DNA from: Longimicrobiales bacterium
Lineage (GTDB): Bacteria; Gemmatimonadota; Gemmatimonadetes; Longimicrobiales; Gaopeijiaceae
Assembly: GCA_965248195.1 (NCBI GenBank)
Contig: CBDFIQ010000002.1
Span: forward strand, 3,200,001 to 3,264,000
DNA length: 64,000 nucleotides
Direction: 5' to 3'
Positions 19,173 to 34,892 of the stretch are shown here, one piece after another. A program made the translations under genes and the position numbers. The stretch's first letter is position 1; every line of letters starts with the position of its first letter. The notes beneath the pieces were generated by a model, which saw only the letters and a program-made list of their open reading frames with translations, was not told where the DNA came from and searched no databases.

Positions 19173-20170
19173 TCTCTCCCGCTCGACCGAGCCTGAATCT
19201 CCCTGTTGAGGAGAGCCAGCTCGACGAGCACCTCTTCCAAGTCGTTATCGTAGCGGTCCTGATCGATCTGGCCACTCAGGGCGCGGAGTTCCTCGAGGCG
19301 CTGCTCCAGCTCCGCTCTCTGCTCGAGGAGTGCTTTCAGCTCCGGATCGTCGGTGGCGCGCGCCGCGGCCAGGGTCGGGTCGGCTGCCAGGAACATCGTT
19401 CGTGCGAGTGAGCCATCCGCGGCGTCCACCAACTCGGTGCTGCCCTCTCCGTCGCCGTTGTCGTCGAGCACCGGGTGTTCGGTGGCGATCCGGTTCGACA
19501 TCGCATACTCCCGTGTGACCTCGATGCGCGCGAACTCGAAGGCCTCCCAAAGCGACACGCGCCCATTCCTGTCGAGATCGGCGGTCTCTCCACTGAACGC
19601 TTCGATGAAGTAGCCTCCGAAGACAGTTTCGTTTCTCTCCCTCCCGGTTCTTGTGGCCGTGACGATGGCGCGCCCCGCTCCCGAGAGTGCCTTCACGAAT
19701 TCTCCACTCGAACTGGCGAGGTTTGCGAACGCCACTCGGCGCTCCGAGAGCTGATCGAGGAGCAGTCCGAAATCTTCTGCGGTCAAGTCGGGCCCCGGGA
19801 GGTTGAAGCGGGACTCTTCGTTGGTGTAGCTGCCGTGCCCAATGAGCACGACGAAGATGTAATCGCCGGGCTGGGAGTTGGAGGCGAGCGTCGTGAAAGC
19901 CCGGTCTATGTTCTCGCGGGTCGAGCGGCCCTGGATTCGCGGATCAGAGGCCGGGTCCTCACTCAAGTAGATGATGTTCTCGGCCGGGATGGTGAACTTC
20001 CCCCCAGCCGCGGTGACGAGAGTGCCGCCCCACTCGGCGAATCTTTCACGGAACTCCGGGTCGCCCCCTAATCCCGTGATGACGAGGACGTGCGTGTCCT
20101 GACCAAGTACCGGTTGGACCACAGCCGTCACGATGAGCATGACGACGACGACGGTGGCGCGGGAGATCAT
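19169..20170 (-). CDS. Secreted caspase/legumain-fold (clan CD-like) protein lacking the catalytic Cys
   Basis: Signal peptide; TRENI...DYIFVVLIGHG; NLASSSG where D-x-C-x-S-G is expected; EF-hand-like DLDRNGRVSLWEA. Confidence 0.65.
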   Translation of the reverse strand: MISRATVVVVMLIVTAVVQPVLGQDTHVLVITGLGGDPEFRERFAEWGGTLVTAAGGKFTIPAENIIYLSEDPASDPRIQGRSTRENIDRAFTTLASNSQPGDYIFVVLIGHGSYTNEESRFNLPGPDLTAEDFGLLLDQLSERRVAFANLASSSGEFVKALSGAGRAIVTATRTGRERNETVFGGYFIEAFSGETADLDRNGRVSLWEAFEFARIEVTREYAMSNRIATEHPVLDDNGDGEGSTELVDAADGSLARTMFLAADPTLAAARATDDPELKALLEQRAELEQRLEELRALSGQIDQDRYDNDLEEVLVELALLNREIQARSSGRE

Positions 20171-22457
20171 ACGAGTCCCCTCTTCCGCCGGTACCCCCAC
20201 TCGCCCGCCATCAGGCCCAGCACCAGAAGCAGCAGGATGGGCATGTCCCAGAGGTCCCGCTCCTCGGTGAGTGTGACGCCGGCGCCGGTCAGACTGATGT
20301 CCTCCGGAAGGCTCGCCACGTTCTCCGGCGTGTAAAACAGCCCGCCCGTCTGGTCCGCGACGCGGCGCAACGTAGTCCCCCGCATACTCGCGTCGAAGTA
20401 TTCGTCATCCGAGGGCGCCACGTTCACGTAGGTGGTGGCGGTTCCGATCGTGTCTCCGGCACGCGTGGCTTGAACCGAGACCTCGTAAAGCCCCGGTCCA
20501 GAGGTGGGAAACCCACCATCGTAGTGCCCGTCTTGTTCAACATCCCAGTCGAGGGGGACCGTGATGGAATCGCCTGACGGATCCCGTACCACGGCAACGA
20601 CGTTTGCGTTGTTTACCTCCACGTACGCTGAATCTCCGACCTCGACCGCGAGCCTAACGGGTTGCCCCGGCTCGACGACCTCTTGCTCGCCTTGGGCCCC
20701 GACCTGGGCGGGCACACCGTCTGCGAGCCAGCGGAGAAGCTGCCGCCAGAAGGTCTCGTGGGTCTGGTCTTCGAGCGAGATGTCGGCGTGCATCTGCCAG
20801 ATCCACGAGTCCTGGATGGGCAGCACGATCACCTTGCCACGGCCATAACGATGGTAGGCGAGGACGACCTGACGATCACGGTCCCCCTCCGGACCCCCGG
20901 TCAGGAGTCCAGTCGCACCCGGCTTGAGACGTGTGACGGGATTCAGGGTCGTGACGGGCGGGAGGGACTCCCAACGTTCACGGACGGAGTCGCTGTTATC
21001 CTCTCCGAGTTGTGTGATGGGGTGGGTGAGACCCGTTCTCGTGGGCGTGATGAAGAGTTCGCCGAAGTAGGGCCCGGCTCCGGTGCTCAGATCGTCGTCC
21101 ATAAAGACGGGCAGTGCCTCCGCCAAGCGTGTGCCCTGGTAGCTTCCCTCCGCAAACGCGTTCCGGCCGCCGAGGACCAGGAGACCACCACCTCGCTGGG
21201 ACACGAAGTCCGCGATCATGTCGAGTTGATCGTGCGTGAAGAAGCTCGCCTCCACACTCCCGAGGATGAGCGCCCGGTAGCGAAACAGCTCTTCCCGTGT
21301 CTTCGGGAACCCGGCCGCGAGTTCCTCGGCGTCGTCCACGTCGAGGCGGAGGAATTTGCTCTCGGCCGTGCGTTGAAGAACCACGACCTGGAGGTTGTCG
21401 TCTTCGGACACCGCGCGGCGCAGGAACTTCACCTCCCAGCGAGGCTCTCCCTCGAAATAGAGGATCTTTTCGGCCTGGTTCACGACGTCCACGAGAACGT
21501 CCGAACGTTGTTCTCCGTTACCCGCTCCCCCTCCTGAGCCGAAACTCTGAATCGAAGCAGACGGGGCCCCGCGTCCTCGGCCTCGATCCGGACCCTGGTG
21601 ACCACGGGTTCGCCATCGCGCTCGAAGGTCACGTCCTCCGAAGCCAGAAGCTGACCCGTGTCCTCCACCATGAGCTGGACCGTCCGCCCCGAGAAGCCGC
21701 GGTGGGACACGATGACGTCGACCACCAACGACGTCCCCACAAGGACCGTCCTCGGCATTTCTACACGGCTGATTTGAACGTCCGGCGACAGTTCCTCCTC
21801 ACCGAGGCCCACCGTATAGACGGGAACATTCGAGGCCTGGAGCGGCAGGAGCGACTCGGCCAGGGCCCCGCCGGAATTGTCGGCCCCGTCCGAAATGACC
21901 ACCAAACCTGAGATCGGCACGCCGGCCAGTTCCTCTTGAGCCCGGACCAGAGCGTTGCCAAGGTCCGTCGCCGTGCCCGCGTAGGATAGATCGCCCATGT
22001 CGTTGAGACGGCTCGCGTCGCGGCTGAAGCGGAAGAAGCGGAGCGTGAACTTTTCGGACAGGGCGGACAAAAGCTCGCTGCCCTCACTGCCGAAGGTCGA
22101 GCGGACGAAGTCACTCCTGGCCACGCCGTCTTCGTCGGTGATGCGCATACTCTGCGAATCGTCGATCAGAATCCCGACGAAATTTCGCTGTGGAACGACC
22201 GAAGTGAGCACGAGCGTGGGCTGGAAGAGTATGAAGACGAGGATCGCGACCAAGCCGAGCCGTAACACCGCCATCACCCACCGGTCTATTCGGCGGCTGT
22301 CTCCCCTGGCGGCTCTATACGTGAGGAGTGCCGGAATGGAAACCGCCGCCACTCCGCCCAGAATGAACAAGGCCGGCCAAGGTGACGCGAAAGTGAAATC
22401 GCCCTCCTGGAAAAGGAGCGGCCTGTACTTAAAAAGGAACTCGAAGATCGTCTCCAT
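20167..22457 (-). pseudogene. vWA + GATase1-like membrane protein, split by one frameshift near 21494 (real or assembly indel)
   Basis: ORFs 21480..22457 and 20167..21492 join as ENNVRTF-[L]-VDVVNQAEKILYFEGEPRWE if one base is added. MIDAS DDSQS, VISDG; C-terminal TM LWDMP...EWGYRRK. Confidence 0.8.
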
Positions 22458-24134: not shown

Positions 24135-25510
24135 GGTCAAGTCCCGATTTGTGTGTAAAAGCGGAGGAAGCTCCTCGCCTTCGGCTAGGCTGCTTGGGCG
24201 ACCTCCTGTTTCTGGAGGAGTGAGAGGTCGAGGTAACGCCGGTCGCCCCAGACGTGTGTGGTCCTGAGTGCGACGGCCGTGATGAGCCTGAGGGCGCTGG
24301 CCCGGTCCGGGAAGGCGCCGGCGGCCTTGATCCTGCGTTTGATCTCGCCGTGCAGCCGCTCGAGGCTGTTGGTGGTACGCAGCCGGGGCCAGTGCGCCTC
24401 GGGGAACGCGTAGAACTGCGTCGCTGCCCCGAAGCCCCGCTCCAGGACCTCCACGGCCTCGGGCAGCTCCTTCTTCCAGCGTGCGCCGAACTCGCCCAGG
24501 AGCTTCTTCGCCTCGGCGAGTCCGGATGTCTGGAAGATCACCGAGACCTCACGCGCCACGCGCTTGCGTAGGCGGTGGGGGACCCTCGCCCCCACATTAC
24601 GCTGCAGATGGACCGTACACCTCTGACGGCGTGCCTCGGGCAGGAAGCGGCGGACCGCAGCTGCCAGGCCTGCGTGCTCATCGGCGATCACGAGCTCGAC
24701 ACCGCCGAGGCCGCGGTCCTGGAGTTGCTCGAGGAGCTCCGACCAGCTCTGCTGCGACTCCTCAGCGCCCAGCGTGACGGCCAGGAGCCGTCGGTGACCC
24801 TCAGGGCCCACTGCATACGCCACGAGCGCACTCACGTTCTCGACTTTGCGGGCCCAGCGGGCGTCCAAGAACGTGGCGTCCAGGTACAGATAGGGGTGAG
24901 GCCCCTCGATCGGCGCACGGCGCAGCCCTTCCACGGCCTCGTCGAGCCGTTTTGCCACACGACTCACCGTCGAGCGCCCAACACGCTCGCCCATCAGCGC
25001 CTCGGTGACGTCGCCCATCTTGCGCTGTGACACGCCGCTCACATACGCCTCGACCATCATCTCGTCGAGCTCGGGGCTCCTGCGCTGGTAGCGGCCGATC
25101 ACGTCGGCCGGCGAACCGTTGTCCCGGCTCCGGGGCATGGCGACCTCGATCTGCCCCAGGCTCGTCAGCAGCCGCCTCAGGTATGTGCCGTTCCTATGGT
25201 CCTTCCGGCTTCCCACCCGCTCGAAGCGGCGTGCACCTACCATGGCCTTCAGCTCCTCTTCCAGCACCATCTCGAGCGTCAGCCGGATCGCGCCTTGAAA
25301 CAGCTCGCGCAAATCATCGCGTAGCTCGTCTTGCGTGGCCCGACCGATCTCCACAATCTCTTGCATCGGAAGCTCCTCTCCGGTTCCGAGCCTGCTCTGC
25401 AGACCCGGACTCCCGGGTTCATGTGACAGTGAACAACAACAGAGGAGCTTCCGTTTTTCTTTCCCTCCTGTCCAGCTTATCCGCTTTTACACAAATCTAG
25501 GGACACTACC
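24135..25510 (-). mobile_element. IS256-family insertion sequence, intact
   Basis: Terminal IRs GGTCAAGTCCCGATTTGTGTGTAAAAGCGGA and (reverse complement) GGTAGTGTCCCTAGATTTGTGTAAAAGCGGA; 8-bp direct repeat GACACAAG at 24127-24134 and 25511-25518. Confidence 0.93.
24185..25366 (-). CDS. IS256 (mutator-type) DDE transposase
   Basis: RNGTYLRRLLTSLG, YLYLDA, VIADEHAGL, QRCTVH, RTTNSLERLHGEIKRR. Confidence 0.95.
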   Translation of the reverse strand: MQEIVEIGRATQDELRDDLRELFQGAIRLTLEMVLEEELKAMVGARRFERVGSRKDHRNGTYLRRLLTSLGQIEVAMPRSRDNGSPADVIGRYQRRSPELDEMMVEAYVSGVSQRKMGDVTEALMGERVGRSTVSRVAKRLDEAVEGLRRAPIEGPHPYLYLDATFLDARWARKVENVSALVAYAVGPEGHRRLLAVTLGAEESQQSWSELLEQLQDRGLGGVELVIADEHAGLAAAVRRFLPEARRQRCTVHLQRNVGARVPHRLRKRVAREVSVIFQTSGLAEAKKLLGEFGARWKKELPEAVEVLERGFGAATQFYAFPEAHWPRLRTTNSLERLHGEIKRRIKAAGAFPDRASALRLITAVALRTTHVWGDRRYLDLSLLQKQEVAQAA

Positions 25511-26081: not shown

Positions 26082-27923
26082 GTGCCGCCTAGTGTAGTGT
26101 CGCCAAGAGCCCGACCGGTAGATCTCCCACCCTTCAAGGAGCGAATGATCGCGCTCCGCCTCCTACCACGGTTTCTGGGTATGGCGTGGAGGGCTCAGCC
26201 GGTCTATGCCGCCGTCATCGTCTCGTTCCGGGTCCTGCTGGCGTTCTCGCCCGTGGTCCAGCTTTGGATCGGAAAGCTCATCATCGACGCGGTCCTGGCG
26301 AACATTGGGGCGCCTACTCCCGAATGGACCGGAATTTTTCGCCTGGTCGCATTGGAACTGGTGGTGGCGCTTGCGTCGGACGTACTCCAGCGCACGTCGA
26401 ACCTCCTCGAGAGCCTCCTCGGTGATCTCTTCGGCAATCGGTTGTCGGTGCGGCTCATGGAGCACGCCGCCACGCTGGACTTGGAGAACTTCGAGAATCC
26501 CGAATTCTACGACTCGCTGGAGCGAGCTCGCCGCCAGACCGTGGGGCGGATCGGGCTGTTGACGGTCCTGCTCGGCATCGGGCAGAACGCCCTGACGTTG
26601 ATCTCTCTCCTTGCCGCGCTCATCGCCTTCAACGGCTGGCTCCTGTTGATGCTGGTGTTTACCGTACTGCCGTCCTTCATCGGCGAGACGCACTTCGCGG
26701 GTCTCTCGTACTCGCTGCTCTACAAGTGGACCCCCGAGCGCAGGGAGCTCGACTACCTTCGCTATGTGGCGACCAGTGACGTGACCGCCAAGGAAGTGAA
26801 GCTCTTCGGCCTTGCCGACTACTTCACGCGCAAGTACGAGCGTCTCGCAGACGAATTCTACGAAGCCAACCGGGCGCTCTCCATTAAGCGTGCCACCACC
26901 TCCGGAGGGCTCACCGCCGTGTCCACCATCGGGTATTACGCGGCCAACGTCTTCATCATCGTCGACACAGTGCGTGGAATTCTCACGCTGGGCGATCTCA
27001 CATTCCTGGTCGGATCGTTCCAGCGGAGCCGCAGCCTGATCAGTGGGATTTTGCTGCGGTCCGCCGACGTGTACCAGCAGAGCCTTTTCTTGAGAGATCT
27101 GTTCACCTTCCTCGAGATGAAGCCCCGGACGGCGAGCCCCGAACATCCCGTGCCGGTGTCCCGGCCGATTCGAGAAGGCGTGGTTTTCGAGAACGTGGGA
27201 TTCCGGTACCCGGACACCGAGGCCTGGGCCCTTCGCGACGTCTCGTTGAGGATCGGGGCGGGAGAGCGCGTTGCGCTCGTGGGGGAAAATGGTGCCGGCA
27301 AGACCACGATGGTCAAGCTGCTGACCCGCCTCTACGACCCGACCGAAGGGCGGATCCTGTTGGATGGCGTCGACCTTCGCGAATACGATGTCGATCAGAT
27401 CCGAAGGGCGATCGGCGTCATCTTTCAGGACTTCGTGCGATACGACTTACTGGTACGTGAAAACATCGCGGTAGGGCAGATCGATGCCATCGGCGATCAA
27501 CCCCGTATCGAACAGGCCGCGGAGATGAGCCTTGCCGACAGCGTCGTTGCCGGCTTGGAGAGTGGCCTGGATCACATGCTCGGGCGCCGCTTCAAAGGCG
27601 GGGCCAACCTCTCCGGGGGCGAGTGGCAGAAAATCGGCCTCGCTCGTGCATACGTGCGTGACGCGCAGATCCTCATTCTCGATGAGCCGACGGCCGCCCT
27701 CGACGCCAGGGCTGAATATCAGGTGTTCGAGAGGTTTTCGGAGCTCACGGAAGGGAAGATGGCTGTGCTCATTAGCCACCGGTTCTCGACTGTACGGATG
27801 GCGGACCGCATCGTGGTATTGGAGAACGGGACGGTGATCGAAGATGGAACGCATGACGACTTGCTGGTGCTTTCCGGCCGTTACGCGGAATTGTTCACGC
27901 TCCAGGCTGTGGGGTACCGGTAA
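26082..27923 (+). CDS. ABC exporter, fused permease/ATPase
   Basis: N-terminal TMs, [43 protein letters not shown]. Confidence 0.92.
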   Translation: MPPSVVSPRARPVDLPPFKERMIALRLLPRFLGMAWRAQPVYAAVIVSFRVLLAFSPVVQLWIGKLIIDAVLANIGAPTPEWTGIFRLVALELVVALASDVLQRTSNLLESLLGDLFGNRLSVRLMEHAATLDLENFENPEFYDSLERARRQTVGRIGLLTVLLGIGQNALTLISLLAALIAFNGWLLLMLVFTVLPSFIGETHFAGLSYSLLYKWTPERRELDYLRYVATSDVTAKEVKLFGLADYFTRKYERLADEFYEANRALSIKRATTSGGLTAVSTIGYYAANVFIIVDTVRGILTLGDLTFLVGSFQRSRSLISGILLRSADVYQQSLFLRDLFTFLEMKPRTASPEHPVPVSRPIREGVVFENVGFRYPDTEAWALRDVSLRIGAGERVALVGENGAGKTTMVKLLTRLYDPTEGRILLDGVDLREYDVDQIRRAIGVIFQDFVRYDLLVRENIAVGQIDAIGDQPRIEQAAEMSLADSVVAGLESGLDHMLGRRFKGGANLSGGEWQKIGLARAYVRDAQILILDEPTAALDARAEYQVFERFSELTEGKMAVLISHRFSTVRMADRIVVLENGTVIEDGTHDDLLVLSGRYAELFTLQAVGYR

Positions 27924-29566
27924 TCCACGTTGGGCGGATGGCTCCACCGGACCATCCTTGAGCGTTTCTTCCAGGCGCGCGGGGCCGGAGCGTAGAGGCC
28001 TTCGAAGAGCTCGAACAACGCCGGATCGAAGATTCTTCCGCAATCCTCGCGCATGACCGAGAGCGCGTGACCGGGCGTCAATCCGGCCCGGTAGCTCCGG
28101 GTGGAGGTGAGCGCGTCGAATACGTCGGCAAGGCAGAGGATCCGGGCCGAAAGAGGAATATCGTCCCCGACCAGGCCGTCCGGGTACCCGCTGCCGTCCC
28201 AGTGCTCGTGATGATGGCGCACCATCGGTCGGATATCCCAGGGGAACTCGATCTCCCGGAGCAGGTGCACACCCGCTTGGGGATGGGCCTTCATGGTGGC
28301 CCATTCCTTGGTGGTAAGGCGGCCGGGTTTGTTCAGGATGGACGAGGGCACGACGATTTTGCCCACGTCGTGGAGTAGCGCGCCCATCCGGAACCACCTC
28401 AGGCGCTCCGAATCCATCCCCGAGGCAGAAGCCAGGGCGCAGGCGTAGTTAGCGACGCGCTCACAGTGTCCTTGGGTGTAGTGGTCCTTTGACTCGATCG
28501 ACTCCCCCCACGTACGGACCACGTCCAGGAAACGGTGCTCGAGTCGAGTGACGCACTCCCGGACTTCCGCGAGGTTATGCTTCGCGTTGAAGTCGGAGAA
28601 GAGTCGGAAGCTCTCGTTCAGGGCCTTGAGCGTATCCTGATTTCGGCCTTGTTTTCTATAGACTTCGGCCAGCTCCTGCGCCGTCTCTGCGGCCAGAAGC
28701 GTGTCCTTTTCATTGTCGGCCACCCGACGGGCCTGGGCGAGCGAGTCCAAGGCCAACTCCAGCCGACCTGTGGAGTGGTAGATGGCTCCGTAGTGCTTGA
28801 GAATCTCTCCCGTCCATCGCCCGCCCGAGACGTCACGGGAGAGGCTGCAGGCTCGATCGCACGACTCGCGGGCGCGCTCGAAATCCTTCCTCATGATCCA
28901 CATCCGTGCCAGATTGACGTGACTGAGCACCTGGTGGTCGATGTCTCCGGACTGCTTGCATCTTCGCCCGGCTTCCAAGAGGGCAATTTCCGCATCGGCC
29001 CACTCGCCCAGATCGGCGTGCAAGTGGCCAATGTTGTTGAGAATGGGGCCGACCCAGTCGTCTTCCCCAAGCGCGTCGTACGCCTCCTTACTCAACCGGT
29101 ACTGGTGGAGCGCCTCGGCGAAGTCCCCCTGGATGTTGCTGATTACGCCGAGGTTCTGGTGGATCATCGCGGCCAGGCTTTCGTCCCCGCAAGCCAGCGC
29201 TCGCTGGAGGCTCCAGGTGTAGTGATTGGCGGCAGCCTGGAGGTTTCCACGCATCTGCTCCACGATGCCCTTCCCATTCACCGCATGCGCCTGTCCCGAA
29301 ACGTCGCCGTTCGCCTCTGCGACCCCGAGTGCGGCCTCGAAGCAGTCCATTGATGCCATGAGGCGCCGGCCGTCGTAGTGCGTCCGGGCGATCCACCGCA
29401 GAATCGCGGCGGCGAGAATCGCGTGCTCGGAGTGGTCGAGGGTCCGGAGCGCGGCCTCATATAAGGAGCGAGCCCGGCTCCGGCGAGTTTCCCGTTCCGC
29501 CGCCCGTGCGTGGGCGATCAGCTCTCGCGCGGCCTCCGGAATGTCCTCGTCGGTGGTCGATTCCAC
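27881..29566 (-). CDS. TPR + HD-GYP domain protein (putative c-di-GMP/cyclic dinucleotide phosphodiesterase)
   Basis: N-terminal TPRs; YTQGHCERV, LLHDVGK, HHEHWDGSGYPDG, ADVFDAL..RSYR. Likely GTG start at 29566. Confidence 0.88.
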   Translation of the reverse strand: MESTTDEDIPEAARELIAHARAAERETRRSRARSLYEAALRTLDHSEHAILAAAILRWIARTHYDGRRLMASMDCFEAALGVAEANGDVSGQAHAVNGKGIVEQMRGNLQAAANHYTWSLQRALACGDESLAAMIHQNLGVISNIQGDFAEALHQYRLSKEAYDALGEDDWVGPILNNIGHLHADLGEWADAEIALLEAGRRCKQSGDIDHQVLSHVNLARMWIMRKDFERARESCDRACSLSRDVSGGRWTGEILKHYGAIYHSTGRLELALDSLAQARRVADNEKDTLLAAETAQELAEVYRKQGRNQDTLKALNESFRLFSDFNAKHNLAEVRECVTRLEHRFLDVVRTWGESIESKDHYTQGHCERVANYACALASASGMDSERLRWFRMGALLHDVGKIVVPSSILNKPGRLTTKEWATMKAHPQAGVHLLREIEFPWDIRPMVRHHHEHWDGSGYPDGLVGDDIPLSARILCLADVFDALTSTRSYRAGLTPGHALSVMREDCGRIFDPALFELFEGLYAPAPRAWKKRSRMVRWSHPPNVDYRYPTAWSVNNSA

Positions 29567-29570
29567 GGTC

Positions 29571-30611
29571 TCAAACGCCCTCTTCGAGGCCGTAGTCGCG
29601 GATCTTGCGGTGGATCGTCGGCCGTGAAATCGCGAGGATGCGTGCGGCAGCGCTTCGATTACCACCAGTCAGCCTCAGTGTAATGCGCAGCGCCTCGGCT
29701 TCGATCTCCGCGAAGGTCATGCCGGTGTCGGGAATATGGATCGCCTGTTCCGGATCGTCGTCTCTTCCCTCACCGCTCCCGTGTCGCTCGAAGATGCTCA
29801 GGTGAGTGGCGTTTATTTCCGGCCCGTCGCTGAGGACGATGGCCCGCTGAATGACGTTCTTCAACTCTCGGACATTTCCGGGCCAGTTATGGAGCTTGAG
29901 TATGTCGATCGCGTCGGCTCTGAAGGATTTGGGAGTGATGCCCATCTCATGGGAGATCTGCTCCACGAAGTGGCGCGCCAAGATCACGGGGTCGTCTCCC
30001 CGCTCACTCAGTGCCGGGATGTTGATCCGAAGGACGTTGAGCCGGTAGAACAAGTCCTCCCTGAAGCGCCCCTCGCTCAGGGCGTCCTCGAAGGATCCGT
30101 TCGAGGACGCGATTAGCCGGCACCGTGCCTCAATTTCGTCCGTGCCTCCGACCCGGCGGAAGCGCCGTTCCTCCAGGGCTCGCAACAGCTTCGGCTGTAG
30201 GTTGGGCGGCAGCTCGCTGATTTCGTCGAGGAAAAGAGTCCCTGCGCCTGCTAGCTCGAGCAGACCAAGCTTGCGGGCTCGGGCGTCGGTGAAGGCGCCC
30301 CGCTCATGGCCGAAGAGCTCGGACTCCAGGAGGTTTGCTGGGATCGCCGCGCAGTTTACCTCGACGAAGGGCTCTTGAGCCTCCGGGCTCGCGTAATGGA
30401 TGCCCCGCGCGAAGAGACCCTTGCCCGTCCCCGTATCCCCCACGATGAGCACGGTCGTGCCCCGGCGAGTTGCGACGCGCATGGAGAACTGGATTGCTTT
30501 GAGTAGAGAGGGGCTCCGGCCGACTATGGCCTGGAAGCCGATGTCGGTGGCATGTCTGCCCGACGGCGCGAAGTCTGCGTGGACTTCTCTACTGGCGAGT
30601 TGGTAGCTCAC
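29571..30611 (-). CDS. Sigma54 enhancer-binding protein (AAA+ and Fis-type HTH) without N-terminal sensor domain
   Basis: GDTGTGK, ESELFGHERGAFTDA, LFLDEI, FREDLFYRL, WPGNVRELKN, C-terminal HTH; AAA+ begins about 25 aa from the start. Confidence 0.92.
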   Translation of the reverse strand: MSYQLASREVHADFAPSGRHATDIGFQAIVGRSPSLLKAIQFSMRVATRRGTTVLIVGDTGTGKGLFARGIHYASPEAQEPFVEVNCAAIPANLLESELFGHERGAFTDARARKLGLLELAGAGTLFLDEISELPPNLQPKLLRALEERRFRRVGGTDEIEARCRLIASSNGSFEDALSEGRFREDLFYRLNVLRINIPALSERGDDPVILARHFVEQISHEMGITPKSFRADAIDILKLHNWPGNVRELKNVIQRAIVLSDGPEINATHLSIFERHGSGEGRDDDPEQAIHIPDTGMTFAEIEAEALRITLRLTGGNRSAAARILAISRPTIHRKIRDYGLEEGV

Positions 30612-30636
30612 GGCTCAATTCGACTCGTGGAACGGG

Positions 30637-31695
30637 TCATCGCGCTTCGGAGAGCACCTGGTCTAAGCGCTCCTGAACGGCTGTGGCGTCGAGGCTGGCG
30701 TTCATCTTGGTGAAGAGCTTGTTTGCCCGCTCAAAAAACTCTCGCGCGCTCTCGAACTCTCGGGCCTGTGCGTGGGTTTCCCCCAGCTCTCTCGCCGCCT
30801 CCGCGGTCAGGAGTATGTCCTCGCTTTCCTCAGCCAACTTGTGGGATTCGGTCAATGTTTCGGTCGCGATAGAGAATTCGCCCTGAGCTCTCTGGATCAT
30901 TCCGAGGAATTTGAGCCCATCCGCCCTCCGGAGGGGGTCGCCTCTCTCTTCGGCGATCGCCAGCGTACCAGATACGTGAAGCTCGGCGTCGGTCCACTGC
31001 TCCAGTTTGATGTAGACCTCAGCGAGGTTCGACTCCAAGAGTGCCTGTGTGTGGAGATCCTTCTGGTTTCTCGCGATCTCGAGGGCGCGCAGGAAATACT
31101 GCTCCGCCTCCCGGTACTTCTCGAAGTCTGTATGGAGCATCCCCAGGTTGTTGAGGACCCAGGACATCCCTTCCTGGAAGGCGCCTTCTTCGAACTGGCG
31201 TAAGCTGGCCCTGTAACGTACCAGCGCCCCATCCAGGTCGCCCTGGATGTTTGCGAGCACCCCGAGGTTCTGCTCCACCATTCCGGCCAACCGGTGCTCC
31301 CCTGCACGGTTGGCTTGGCGGGCTGCCTGCCGGTAGAGGCCTCGTGCTCCCTCCACGTCCCCCCGGCGTTGTGCGATGATGGCAAGGCAGTTGAGGGCGT
31401 GTGCCTCTCCCGCCTCGTAACCGACCTCGTGAGCCGAGGCACGACTCTCTTGGTAATGGAATTCGGCGGCCGCGGTTTGCCCCAGTTCTCTACGTGTCGT
31501 TCCGAGCCAACGGAGGACGTCCACTCGGAGAGGCGACGGCTCGGAGTCGGGCAGCAGCGAGATGGCCTCCTCGAGCTTGGATAGTGAATCCCGGAGAGCT
31601 CCCTGGGTTTCCGCCTCGCGTCCCTCCCGGGCGAGCTCCCTGGCTTGAGCCTGTCTCCCGTCGCGAGATTCGTTCTTGGGGTCATTCGTGCGCAC
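30637..31695 (-). CDS. Stand-alone cytoplasmic TPR protein
   Basis: About 8 TPR-like repeats (AHALNCLA, QNLGVLANIQGD, VLNNLG, SNLAEVY); no signal peptide. Confidence 0.88.
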   Translation of the reverse strand: MRTNDPKNESRDGRQAQARELAREGREAETQGALRDSLSKLEEAISLLPDSEPSPLRVDVLRWLGTTRRELGQTAAAEFHYQESRASAHEVGYEAGEAHALNCLAIIAQRRGDVEGARGLYRQAARQANRAGEHRLAGMVEQNLGVLANIQGDLDGALVRYRASLRQFEEGAFQEGMSWVLNNLGMLHTDFEKYREAEQYFLRALEIARNQKDLHTQALLESNLAEVYIKLEQWTDAELHVSGTLAIAEERGDPLRRADGLKFLGMIQRAQGEFSIATETLTESHKLAEESEDILLTAEAARELGETHAQAREFESAREFFERANKLFTKMNASLDATAVQERLDQVLSEAR

Positions 31696-31755
31696 TGTCT
31701 TTGATCTCCGGCAAGTGGGGGGGTAGGATGAACGACATGGAGACCACTTTCCCGC

Positions 31756-32406
31756 TCATCCTGAGGCTACTGCATACCCCAAATAGCGCGCAATTCCAAA
31801 GAAGTGTTCGGTCTCAGGGACGACAGCTTCGCCGTCCGTAATCTCAAGGACGACGGTTCCGTCGTCCATATAAATGGGAAGGGTCTTTAAGGGCGTTACT
31901 CCGGACGTGGAATCTCCCTCGAAGTAGACCACGCCGAGGAGCCCCACCAAATAACGTCGCATTTCGTCGCCGTCGAAGATTTCCTCTTCGCCCCACTCCA
32001 ACCATGATCCGGCTAACCTTTCGCGAGCGATGCGGATCTGCACCGGAACGCCGAAGGTCAAACCATGCGCTCCGAATCCGAAGGCCACGACCGAACCCTG
32101 GAGCGCTCGGGCTTCGATCAACACGCTCTCCGAAACTGCCCCCTCCGGAAAGCGGATCTCGACGTCGGTGCCCCAAAGCTGGATTACGCCGCCCGCCGGA
32201 CCGATCACTCGGCGGGCTACGACGTCCTCGGCAACCGGTTCACGCCACTCCAGGGCCCCGAAGCCGGGTGCCGGAGCCCGATCGAAGAAGTCCGCCGCCG
32301 ACCTCCCGGGGGAGGGGTCGACCGCCGTAGGCAGATCGGTACACGCGAACAGCGCTAGTACGAGTGTCACGGAGGCCAGGGACCAAACGTTCCTCAACAA
32401 TTGCAT
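31756..32406 (-). CDS. Lipoprotein with ZU5-like domain
   Basis: ATG 32406 after AGGAG; lipobox LALFA-C; IGPAGGVI...IRFPEGAV...HGLTFGVPVQIRI pattern; C-terminus EHFFGIARYLGYAVASG. Confidence 0.7.
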   Translation of the reverse strand: MQLLRNVWSLASVTLVLALFACTDLPTAVDPSPGRSAADFFDRAPAPGFGALEWREPVAEDVVARRVIGPAGGVIQLWGTDVEIRFPEGAVSESVLIEARALQGSVVAFGFGAHGLTFGVPVQIRIARERLAGSWLEWGEEEIFDGDEMRRYLVGLLGVVYFEGDSTSGVTPLKTLPIYMDDGTVVLEITDGEAVVPETEHFFGIARYLGYAVASG

Positions 32407-32462
32407 CTTTCCACTCCTGGATTGATCGACGGTTCCGAACTGTACCGGGGGAATACCGCAGA

Positions 32463-32478
32463 TGCAATGTCGATGCCA
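32463..32478 (-). promoter_or_regulatory. Sigma54 (-24/-12) promoter
   Basis: Minus strand TGGCATCGACATTGCA = TGGCA-N6-TTGCA with exact GG-N10-GC spacing, about 57 nt upstream of the lipoprotein ATG. Confidence 0.8.
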
Positions 32479-32494
32479 AAGCGTGGAAACCATG

Positions 32495-32520
32495 TAACAC
32501 GTTGTTGGTCAATCATTTAC
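32495..32520. promoter_or_regulatory. IHF-like binding site(s)
   Basis: GGTCAATCATTTA (+) and CAACAACGTGTTA (-) resemble WATCAANNNNTTR with 2 mismatches each; they lie between the promoter and the enhancer. Confidence 0.4.
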
Positions 32521-32555
32521 GGTCCGATAGAGTCAATGGGGCTCCAGGTCCACTA

Positions 32556-32631
32556 TGTGTCATATTATTACGTTTTGTGACGTAATGCAACAATTATTTA
32601 CGTTATTGCAAAATATGTAATATTATGACAC
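32556..32631. promoter_or_regulatory. AT-rich upstream activator sequence: large imperfect palindrome
   Basis: GTGTCATATTATTAC (32557-32571) versus GTAATATTATGACAC (32617-32631): 14/15 inverted identity; inner TGACGTAA/TTACGTTA pair; TGT-N9-AC(A/G) half-site geometry. Confidence 0.7.
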
Positions 32632-32641
32632 GCACCTTGCA

Positions 32642-33877: not shown

Positions 33878-34892
33878 TCAGGCTTGGGCGAACTCCCGTA
33901 GCTTAGCCACCTGATGGGGGTGCCCCACCACGATCATCTCATCACCAATGTCGAGCCGGGTATCGGCCGCCGGGTTGAACACGAATTCACGCGTCTCGTC
34001 GAGCTGTTTTCGCACCGCGATGACGATAAGCCCCGTTTCCTGGGGAATGCGAGCGTCGATGAGCGTTCGTCCCGCCAGCCGGGAGTCAGACTCAACAACA
34101 GGATGCTCGAAGCGCAAAGCTAGATCCTCCGACCTGGTCACGATGTCGAGGAAGGAAACCACCTCGGGGCGGAGCAGCAGCGAGGCCATCCTGATCGCGC
34201 CGCTGACATTCGGGCTCACCACGTGGTCGGCCCCAGCTCGGTAGAGCTTCTCCATGCTTCCCTCTTCGAGCGCCCTGGCAACGATCGTGAGATCAGTGTT
34301 GAGGTCCCGTGCCGAGAGACAAACGAAGACGTTGTCGGTATCTGCGCTCAGACACGACAGCAGTCCCCGAGCTTTCAGGATACCGGACTCCCTCAGGTTT
34401 GCGTCCAGCGTGGCGTCTCCAATCACGGTCAAGACCTCGGGATACCGCTCATGGGTCCACTCGAGGCGTTGCGGATCCCGTTCAATCACTACGAAATCCT
34501 GCCCCAGGGCCAACAGCTTTCATCACCTGCTGCCCCATTCGCCCACCCCCACACACGACGATGTGGCCGCCCAGGCGCTCTAACATACGTTCCCTCCAGC
34601 GTCTTTTTCTAACGTCACCAAGGTCGAATTCCACGATGAATGATGTGATCAGCGCGAACCAGACGCCGATTCCCGTGATCCCTGCTGCCACCAGGACCAT
34701 CGTAAAGTCCCGGCCAAGCTCGGACAGTGGGCGGACTTCCTGGAAGCCCACCGCGCTGAGGGTTATCACCGTCATGTATAGGGCTTCCCGCCACGGCCAC
34801 CCCTCGATGGCCACATAACCAACGGCCCCAACGACGGTCAGAGCAACAAGATAGGCGATCGCACCCAAGAATCGGGGGATAAAAACGCGCAT
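33878..34892 (-). pseudogene. Two-TM potassium channel with RCK (TrkA-N/C) domains, frameshifted near 34517
   Basis: ORF 34482..34892 (pore, HIVVCGGGRMG) and ORF 33878..34513 (VVIERD, GDAT, TrkA-C) join across GTGATGAAAGCTGTTG. Confidence 0.8.

Follow-up and report, generated by a model that had tools for sequence, protein, structure and literature searches.

Organization of the locus

A stretch of 64,000 nucleotides (nt) from the genome of a Longimicrobiales bacterium (phylum Gemmatimonadota; contig CBDFIQ010000002.1, positions 3,200,001 to 3,264,000), here called the window, carries a module of four genes that encode a lipoprotein, a stand-alone tetratricopeptide repeat (TPR) protein, a bacterial enhancer-binding protein (bEBP) without a sensor domain, and an HD-GYP protein with a TPR region of its own (Table 1). 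As read in a first-pass annotation of this DNA, the four genes are co-oriented and tightly spaced; in the open reading frame (ORF) calls of the window all lie on the minus strand, with 60 nt between the lipoprotein gene and the stand-alone TPR gene and with the likely start of the TPR-HD-GYP gene at 29566, 4 nt past the bEBP stop. TPR and bEBP genes of such modules often overlap by 4 nt, and no terminator-like site was detected at the module. On the sequence, the four genes are a conserved operon behind a sigma54-type promoter, part of a real, phylum-wide and apparently undescribed module for which the sequence evidence names a candidate ligand, the C-terminal tail of the lipoprotein.

Table 1. 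Features of the module and its upstream region, in window coordinates
Feature	Position	Strand	Description	Basis
Lipoprotein gene	32406-31756	minus	216 aa, ZU5/GAIN-fold domain; predicted signal precursor	
Stand-alone TPR gene	31695-30637	minus	352 aa, about eight repeats; putative peptide receptor and bEBP regulator	
Sensor-less bEBP gene	30611-29571	minus	346 aa, AAA+, GAFTDA, Fis-type helix-turn-helix (HTH)	
TPR-HD-GYP gene	29566-27881	minus	about 561 aa; predicted cyclic-dinucleotide phosphodiesterase	
Whole module as one block	27924-32640		flanked by an ABC-exporter gene and a cyclophilin gene	contigs joining 27923 to 32641
Predicted lipoprotein signal peptide	32341-32406	minus	lipobox LFA-C22 at its end	sequence
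HFF, residues 201-203	31798-31806	minus	HF-S remnant without nucleophile, within loop inserted before tail	
C-terminal heptapeptide GYAVASG	31759-31779	minus	candidate ligand	conservation and covariation
N-terminal motif M-SYQLASR of bEBP	30588-30611	minus	resembles lipoprotein tail	
Sigma54 -24/-12 promoter TGGCAT-N5-TTGCA	32478-32463	minus	before lipoprotein gene	
Palindrome 1, TGTCA-N5-TTACA	32616-32630	minus	152 nt before sigma54 site; likely bEBP binding site	
Middle palindrome-like site, GTAA-N7-TTGC	32586-32602	minus		alignment of 13 upstream regions
Palindrome 2, CGTAA-N5-TGACA	32558-32572	minus	94 nt before sigma54 site	
Possible IHF-type bending site	32508-32519	minus	weak in window copy	position conserved

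The lipoprotein and its C-terminal tail

The exported lipoprotein of the first-pass annotation is present, but its fold and its conserved tail had been overlooked. The lipobox cysteine is invariant in 43 homologues, which would imply processing of the signal peptidase II type. The Pfam ZU5 match (E 0.013) lies below the cut-off, and ZU5 is found in 30-50% of the members of the Atlas clusters. The structural model (mean pLDDT 68.6) best matches the ankyrin ZU5 domain (Z 8.1, root-mean-square deviation (rmsd) 3.1, 116 residues aligned) and also UNC5b and GAIN domains; the top nine structural matches are all ZU5 or GAIN proteins. No paralogue of the lipoprotein was found in its own genome. Elsewhere, several modules with different tails occur within one genome (L067, L076).

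Near the C-terminus, HF-S or HF-C is found in 52 of the 64 modules, including Ser-to-Cys swaps that retain the nucleophile, and the serine is usually followed by 6-7 residues. A close relative (P0010, L092) has HFS where the window copy has HFF, and HFS has also been lost in L054/L056/L058, L047 and L050. The lipoprotein tree yields 5 HFS changes, at least 2 of them forced, a rough count given that rows P0039 and P0049 were wrongly cut. The loop at the cleavage site is itself hypervariable (31780-31840; P0001-P0053), with at least ten unrelated inserts in copies whose neighbouring TPRs are 82-92% identical. Throughout the close clade these varied loops are always followed by G[YFH]AVASx.

The tail is retained where HFS has been lost, and its codon variation is mostly synonymous. 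A second copy of the tail, located past the structural strand and often preceded by basic residues, is present in about 15 modules. Since the tail is kept without HFS and is copied outside the fold, its role seems to go further than completing that fold. The distal copy is the closer one to the simple tail in 6/6 cases with a close comparison, a figure inflated by the pattern used to find the copies. Between HFS-less copies, the ratio of nonsynonymous to synonymous substitution (dN/dS) is 0.09-0.16 for TPR, bEBP and HD-GYP, as in HFS-intact pairs, and 0.22-0.49 for the lipoprotein core.

Putative TPR receptors and covariation with the tail

The collinearity first noticed between the stand-alone TPR protein and the TPR region of the HD-GYP protein is borne out by a gapless alignment over 325 residues at 29% identity (E 6e-38), and in a quick tree of the first set the two kinds of TPR form two largely congruent clades. 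Inner helices of the stand-alone protein carry conserved R62, N102, Q142/N143, N182/N183 and N223, an invariant Asn ladder. Fold matches of the TPR model include peptide-bound Rap, NprR and AimR (RapJ-CSF: Z 26.9, rmsd 4.3, 316 aligned), with MalT domain III and APPBP2 outscoring Rap; the sequence is nearer LGN/PINS, and of the best 60 of 123 solved-structure matches none was a Rap, NprR or PlcR sequence. A complex prediction of the TPR protein with the last 30 lipoprotein residues scored 0.02 (mark 0.32) and was counted neither for nor against. No simple TPR-bEBP fusion was seen among 120 of the 147 longer TPR relatives, the closest being large TPR/GGDEF/HD-GYP proteins, which is weak evidence.

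Covariation between tail and groove was examined by a tree-aware co-change test on a tree of 153 receptor domains, in which z values are approximate and one tail change is counted once in each paralogue clade. Tail position 1 changes with TPR column 256 (z 6.4), position 5 with column 142 (z 4.7), position 6 with column 106 (z 4.5), and position 7 with columns 99 (z 5.0) and 139 (z 3.9). Four of the seven tail positions reach z>=4.5, versus 0/104 lipoprotein-core control columns, only 15/104 of which have their best partner in the groove set. In the structural model the covarying columns all map to inner helices. Judged from the paired residues, the swaps are sensible in size and charge: G7 goes with H99 (70/80), D or N at position 7 with S99 (17/25) and Y6 with G106 (12/15); six-residue tails go with R139 (23/29) and E99 (22/29), and R1 tails with D256 (15/32) and never with R256. 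Where two tail copies exist, the distal one fits the groove better than the proximal one in 5/5 pairs.

With stand-alone and HD-fused TPRs analysed separately, columns 256 and 99 come first among about 317 in each set. On a tree built without the groove columns the ranks are 2, 1, 1 and 1, and ranks also hold after 80% dereplication. One ligand for both TPRs, as first proposed, is thus supported by covariation seen separately in both families; the signal peptide then offered as that ligand is without support, and the evidence favours the C-terminal tail of 6-7 residues, which probably binds the TPR groove. Conserved acidic residues (E299, E303, D/E259) lie near the position-1 pocket, and the peptide would be oriented with its C-terminus at the early repeats (Arg/Gln) and its N-terminus at the acidic late repeats.

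The pairing rules were fixed before fresh loci, kin of the first set, were fetched. With automatic tail assignment over 61 receptors, D/N7 went with S or A at column 99 in 10/10, six-residue tails with R or K at column 139 in 30/31, and R/K1 with a residue other than R256 in 26/26. In a second pass four non-adjacent TPR genes were dropped (61 to 57 receptors) and tails were re-registered post hoc; G7 then went with H99 in 11/11, other residues with a column 99 other than His in 15/15, six-residue tails again with R or K at column 139 in 30/31, long tails with a column 139 other than R or K in 26/26, and R1 with D256 in 15/15 versus 3/10. Replication is partial and firmest at the C-terminal end, with the rules for that end and for position 1 upheld and two others failing.

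The activator, its promoter and the HD-GYP output

Domain search of the bEBP finds PF00158 Sigma54_activat at residues 29-196 and PF02954 HTH_8 at 300-340. Because the AAA+ domain begins at residue 29, the protein has no REC, GAF or PAS domain, and its sensor-less nature, claimed at first pass, is upheld. Its score for the PspF family is 240 (cut-off 444). Its loop reads GAFTDA, a variant that the available text of PMC4641369 lists as tolerated and that of PMC10714721 leaves open. Some module bEBPs (L007, L036, L038, L064, L067, L076) are without a GAFTxA loop or canonical Walker patterns, and some of these stand behind sigma54-like sites.

The start of the bEBP resembles the lipoprotein tail, M-SYQLASR standing in register with the cleaved tail S-GYAVASG. 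A start of the form M-[STN]-[YF]-[QH]-L-A is found in 26/45 AAA ORFs, with synonymous codon changes and then a variable linker. The N-terminus is the best tail-like segment of the bEBP, with a score reached at that place by 0.07% of 5488 long ORFs, a figure obtained post hoc. It may be proposed, tentatively, that the stand-alone TPR protein holds the activator by this N-terminus and that the peptide competes for the same groove.

By itself the -24/-12 pattern is weak, with 6 matches in the window versus 2.46 expected. A site scoring >=12.5 lies near the lipoprotein start in 29/44 clusters, versus 3.75% of 2000 random 550-nt windows; rpoN was found in the own genome, and AT content is 64% in the upstream stretch, compared with 37% in the window as a whole. 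The -24/-12 promoter and AT-rich upstream region of the first-pass annotation therefore stand, the sigma54 site being conserved. Palindromes 1 and 2 keep their distances from that site in close relatives, and a 34-nt imperfect inverted repeat lies within the upstream stretch. The IHF consensus fits the conserved position in L052 and L053 and, with up to 1 mismatch allowed, has no match in the window. When the own genome was scanned strictly, a strong sigma54 site with such a palindrome upstream appeared only at this operon, so the one predicted target of the bEBP is its own operon, which supports the positive feedback suggested at first pass.

A catalytic HD-GYP domain is recognized by a set of conserved motifs, and in the window TPR-HD-GYP protein all five motif groups are intact: HD, HxxxG, HHExxDGxGYP, ADxFDA and the N-terminal ExKDxxTxxH (PF13487, E 4e-39). 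As its substrate we infer cyclic di-GMP (c-di-GMP) or cyclic GMP-AMP (cGAMP). At least nine strong GGDEF domains and two Opp-type binding proteins are encoded in the same genome. The C-termini of the TPR-HD-GYP proteins (27881-27900 in the window) mostly consist of small non-polar residues, with Ala at the end in 29/43 and [AVS]-Ala in 22/43, versus 13% and 6% of long ORFs. We take this Ala-type end to resemble a ClpX-type degron; if functional, it would make the HD-GYP enzyme short-lived.

Distribution, synteny and loss

Among named relatives, the closest is a genome bin of Gemmatimonadetes in which the gene neighbours are the same. TPR matches at E<=1e-15 were found in 138/401 genomes of the order, a tally that includes one match in G117, a genome marked unpublished that enters into no other result, and profile matches at E<=1e-40 in 159/401 genomes of the phylum, with five candidates scored per genome. 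Similarity to the TPR or the lipoprotein served to choose 115 loci; of these, 32 show exactly the order lipoprotein-TPR-bEBP-TPR/HD-GYP, and 4 more have it inside longer clusters; 23 hold a lipoprotein-TPR/HD-GYP pair and 11 a lipoprotein-TPR pair. In 60 further loci a ZU5 lipoprotein gene lies upstream of 61/72 TPR genes. From these combinations, lipoprotein and TPR make up a constant core around which the outputs vary. The four-gene form also exists in a second order (L106-L108, L111-L115), and conservation of gene order, the check proposed at first pass, thus extends across Gemmatimonadota to at least two orders.

The module is absent from contigs of runs X16 and X22, which pass straight from 27923 to 32641. 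Five same-genus genomes are without the module, and two retain remnants of the HD-GYP gene. The module is a discrete block that was repeatedly lost, not a recent insertion; an origin as a mobile element was considered and rejected on the deletion remnants, which have different ends in same-genus genomes. Contigs from RNA-labelled runs cover parts of the module but cannot show transcription.

Several related arrangements were observed. In one family (L116-L119), TPR-bEBP pairs have an unrelated secreted protein, not a ZU5 lipoprotein, encoded upstream. A second module type (L121:1453-4486, L152, L159, L169, L077:11737) combines a REC-type bEBP, a lipoprotein and a divergent TPR protein without R62; its lipoprotein tails are [GF]F[TS]-RYAIAY-like, and it is often convergent with the main module. 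Proteins of about 1600 aa that join related TPRs to AAA_16, GGDEF and HD-GYP domains are common in Gemmatimonadota (P0055-P0093, L110:7960-12777), and the gene for one of them sits immediately upstream of a module. In L051 and L113, frameshifts in the bEBP or HD-GYP genes may be assembly errors or decay.

Around the module, a scan of 20 flanking ORFs between 16.5 and 42.2 kb turned up no histidine kinase, and for these ORFs the absence of a kinase, as first stated, holds. The HD-GYP gene and the convergent ABC-exporter gene share 43 nt (27881-27923) at the end of the latter. A potassium-channel gene (Ion_trans_2, TrkA_N, TrkA_C; 33878-34892, minus strand) is split into two overlapping frames, with short versions in relatives as well. 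An intact-looking Mutator/IS256-family transposase gene (24185-25366, minus strand) lies between a small unknown gene and a ferritin gene and was not seen there in L001. What appears to be a single large membrane/vWA-type gene is in two pieces (21480-22457 and 20167-21492, minus strand), with no Pfam match at 1e-5.

Proposed mechanism and alternative explanations

A model is proposed in which the lipoprotein is exported and its last seven residues are cut off, in most relatives by the protein's own ZU5/GAIN-type HF-S site. In the window copy the serine is lost and a loop is inserted, so that it presumably cannot cleave itself and another protease would make the cut. The freed peptide would enter the cytoplasm and bind the groove of both TPR domains. 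The stand-alone TPR protein would hold the sensor-less activator, possibly via the activator's tail-like N-terminus, until the peptide displaces it, which would make the operon self-amplifying; this peptide would also switch the HD-GYP enzyme gated by its TPR region, and the resulting change in c-di-GMP would be the likely real output. That the tail is released and imported as a signal between cells, closing a peptide-signalling loop, has about an even chance of being right. A broader view is rather doubtful: phylum-wide intracellular peptide signalling in diderm bacteria, in which a GAIN-like lipoprotein frees its last strand, a code of TPR groove residues reads it, the sigma54 activator is set free as its tail-mimicking N-terminus is displaced, and c-di-GMP breakdown is gated. 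As part of it, and no less doubtful, the freed strand might by analogy be a diffusible counterpart of the tethered agonist of adhesion G-protein-coupled receptors.

A number of findings weigh against this model. The window copy has no catalytic serine. In the modelled fold the tail forms the last strand, and completing that fold explains part of the tail's conservation; the tail is also identical across a wide clade, unlike pheromones, which change fast. Over all modules with a second tail, the distal copy is closer to the nearest simple tail in just 9/16. Clustering of neighbouring genes found no further conserved gene beyond local synteny, and no importer or protease gene with the module. 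Many modules have no bEBP at all, 7/45 bEBPs have no GAFTxA loop, and the N-terminal motif is unclear in 14 bEBPs of the other order, which is why mimicry by the activator is held only tentatively.

The covariation has its own weak points. In the first set, column 256 falls to rank 15 without one family, and column 106 ranks 269 in HD-fused TPRs alone. The overall trend in register fell short of significance (Spearman -0.77, p 0.07), as did a centre-of-mass test of the peptide register. Between the two paralogues, parallel changes show only a modest excess at groove positions (26/306 versus 172/3429, p 0.016), and in the first set the column test of such changes gave p 0.72. Agreement on the fresh loci is partly inheritance, these being kin of the first set. 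With automatic assignment S6 went with I106 in only 2/7, and in the tree-aware test only column 139 ranked first (256 was 58th and 99 was 201st). After re-registering, the S6-I106 rule (2/13) and the rule that tails without A5 avoid Q142 (1/8) failed, and columns 139, 256, 99, 142 and 106 ranked 1st, 8th, 65th, 193rd and 230th.

Other explanations share part of this evidence. The envelope might monitor itself: the cleaved strand would stay in the fold and be freed only by force or unfolding in the same cell, to meet the same receptors as the same ligand, a behaviour already proposed for GAIN and MAIN domains. The ZU5/GAIN fold and the uniform tail agree with this, all covariation fits it equally, and MAIN cleavage products are described as remaining bound until denatured in the main text of a preprint (10.64898/2026.05.12.724683). 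The lipoproteins have, however, no adhesion domain by which they could be pulled; HFS-less copies remain under selection; and positive feedback, together with the different tails within one genome (L067, L076), looks like a communication code. This explanation is unlikely, although it deserves to be kept in view.

Alternatively, the TPRs might read the tail on unexported precursor in the cytoplasm, as a gauge of export that needs neither release nor import. Such sensing would explain the missing importer, the repeated loss of HFS with the tail kept, and the tail's usual place at the chain end. It does not suit the persistence of HF-S/C in 52/64 modules with nucleophile-preserving swaps, nor the basic residues often found before displaced tail copies, and a free amino end would be well matched by the acidic residues close to the position-1 pocket. 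We regard it as improbable.

Slightly less credible still is that the lipoprotein is only an output and its tail structural, the TPRs regulating each other or sensing something else, as in RcbA/RcbB. Control of a c-di-GMP enzyme between TPR proteins is documented (PMC12282931, in the text available), the tail is the last strand in the model, and part of the covariation is unreplicated. Yet many modules have a single TPR, always beside the lipoprotein, as in the two kinds of pair counted above; second tail copies outside the fold retain the clade signature; and tail columns alone, not core columns, co-change with groove columns. Finally, that the module is decaying in this lineage and the loss of HFS marks a dead system is very improbable, for although same-genus genomes deleted the module, two leaving remnants, and the lipoprotein core evolves faster with many different loops at the cut site, the other three genes are as constrained as in HFS-intact pairs, tail codons vary synonymously, and promoter and palindromes are kept.

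The proposed peptide-signalling model therefore retains much of the first-pass interpretation, namely the gene order, the sigma54 site, self-activation and a shared ligand, and departs from it in the identity of that ligand and in the term self-contained, which is too strong for a module with which no importer or protease gene travels and whose window copy appears unable to cleave itself.

Significance and comparison with known systems

Cytoplasmic TPR receptors that read peptide signals have been described for Bacillota (PMC10075063, text available in part). If the model is true, the same logic would operate across the outer membrane in an abundant, little-cultured Gram-negative phylum, peptide sensing would be linked to sigma54 and c-di-GMP, and self-cleavage of bacterial ZU5/GAIN domains would gain a signalling role where the main text of the MAIN preprint proposes just surface-protein release. 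Because covariation names a candidate ligand and its receptor residues, the idea is testable with synthetic peptides and three purified proteins, and the many natural peptide-receptor pairs could serve as orthogonal switches. The arrangement was not recognized at first pass as a described system, and no description of it was found in the literature searched, where most subscription papers fell outside; these lipoproteins could be listed in Additional File 1 of PMC3482391 or among the 15,000 proteins tabulated in the supplement of the MAIN preprint.

PspF with PspA and HrpRS with HrpV are bEBPs without a sensor domain that are controlled by a partner protein. The bEBP of the module is like them in its AAA+ and HTH domains and in the predicted partner control, and differs in that its partner would be a peptide-binding TPR protein. 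In RedR2/BtdS an N-terminal tail takes part in sequestration of the bEBP, according to the accessible text of PMC10084136. RcbA/RcbB of Vibrio vulnificus resembles the module in being an operon for a TPR protein and a TPR-gated c-di-GMP enzyme; it differs in having a cyclase as RcbB and an additional domain in RcbA, and the available portion of that paper (PMC12282931) names no lipoprotein, peptide or bEBP.

Bacterial MAIN domains self-cleave at HF/S, with products that stay bound, and their proteins are large, with an anchor on the C-terminal side and release of the N-terminal part, as set out in the main text of the preprint (10.64898/2026.05.12.724683). The lipoproteins share the fold class, secretion and an HX(S/T/C) motif before the domain end in most modules, the catalytic HX(S/T) motif being absent from the window copy (HFF). 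In contrast, they are single-domain proteins with an N-terminal lipid anchor and 7-8 residues after the cut. The main text of the preprint makes no mention of TPR, lipoprotein, HD-GYP or Gemmatimonad, and the accessible text of PMC3482391 places bacterial ZU5 domains in toxins and large surface proteins.

The RRNPP systems of Bacillota (Rap/Phr, NprR/NprX, PlcR/PapR, AimR/AimP) come closest in their working. As listed in the available text of PMC10075063, they have a propeptide of 10-100 aa exported by Sec and signal peptidase I, a receptor of 250-500 aa, TPRs with Asn, and adjacent receptor and propeptide genes. Here the precursor is 216 aa long (119-216 aa among 52 homologues, precursors being given as 170-250 aa versus RRNPP) and carries a lipobox that predicts signal peptidase II type processing. 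The receptor, at 352 aa, is within range, its HD-fused paralogue being longer; it has conserved Asn in TPRs predicted to bind peptide; and the genes are adjacent. With three of these five features shared and both propeptide ones different, the module is best regarded as RRNPP-like in its working and not as a member. The likeness extends to an exported precursor, a short C-terminal peptide and an Asn-lined groove with anchor and specificity residues, and the predicted peptide orientation is the one reported for RapF-PhrF in the accessible text of PMC3601957. The differences lie in the diderm host, the folded, putatively self-cleaving lipoprotein precursor, and two receptor paralogues whose outputs would be a sigma54 activator acted on in trans and an HD-GYP domain.

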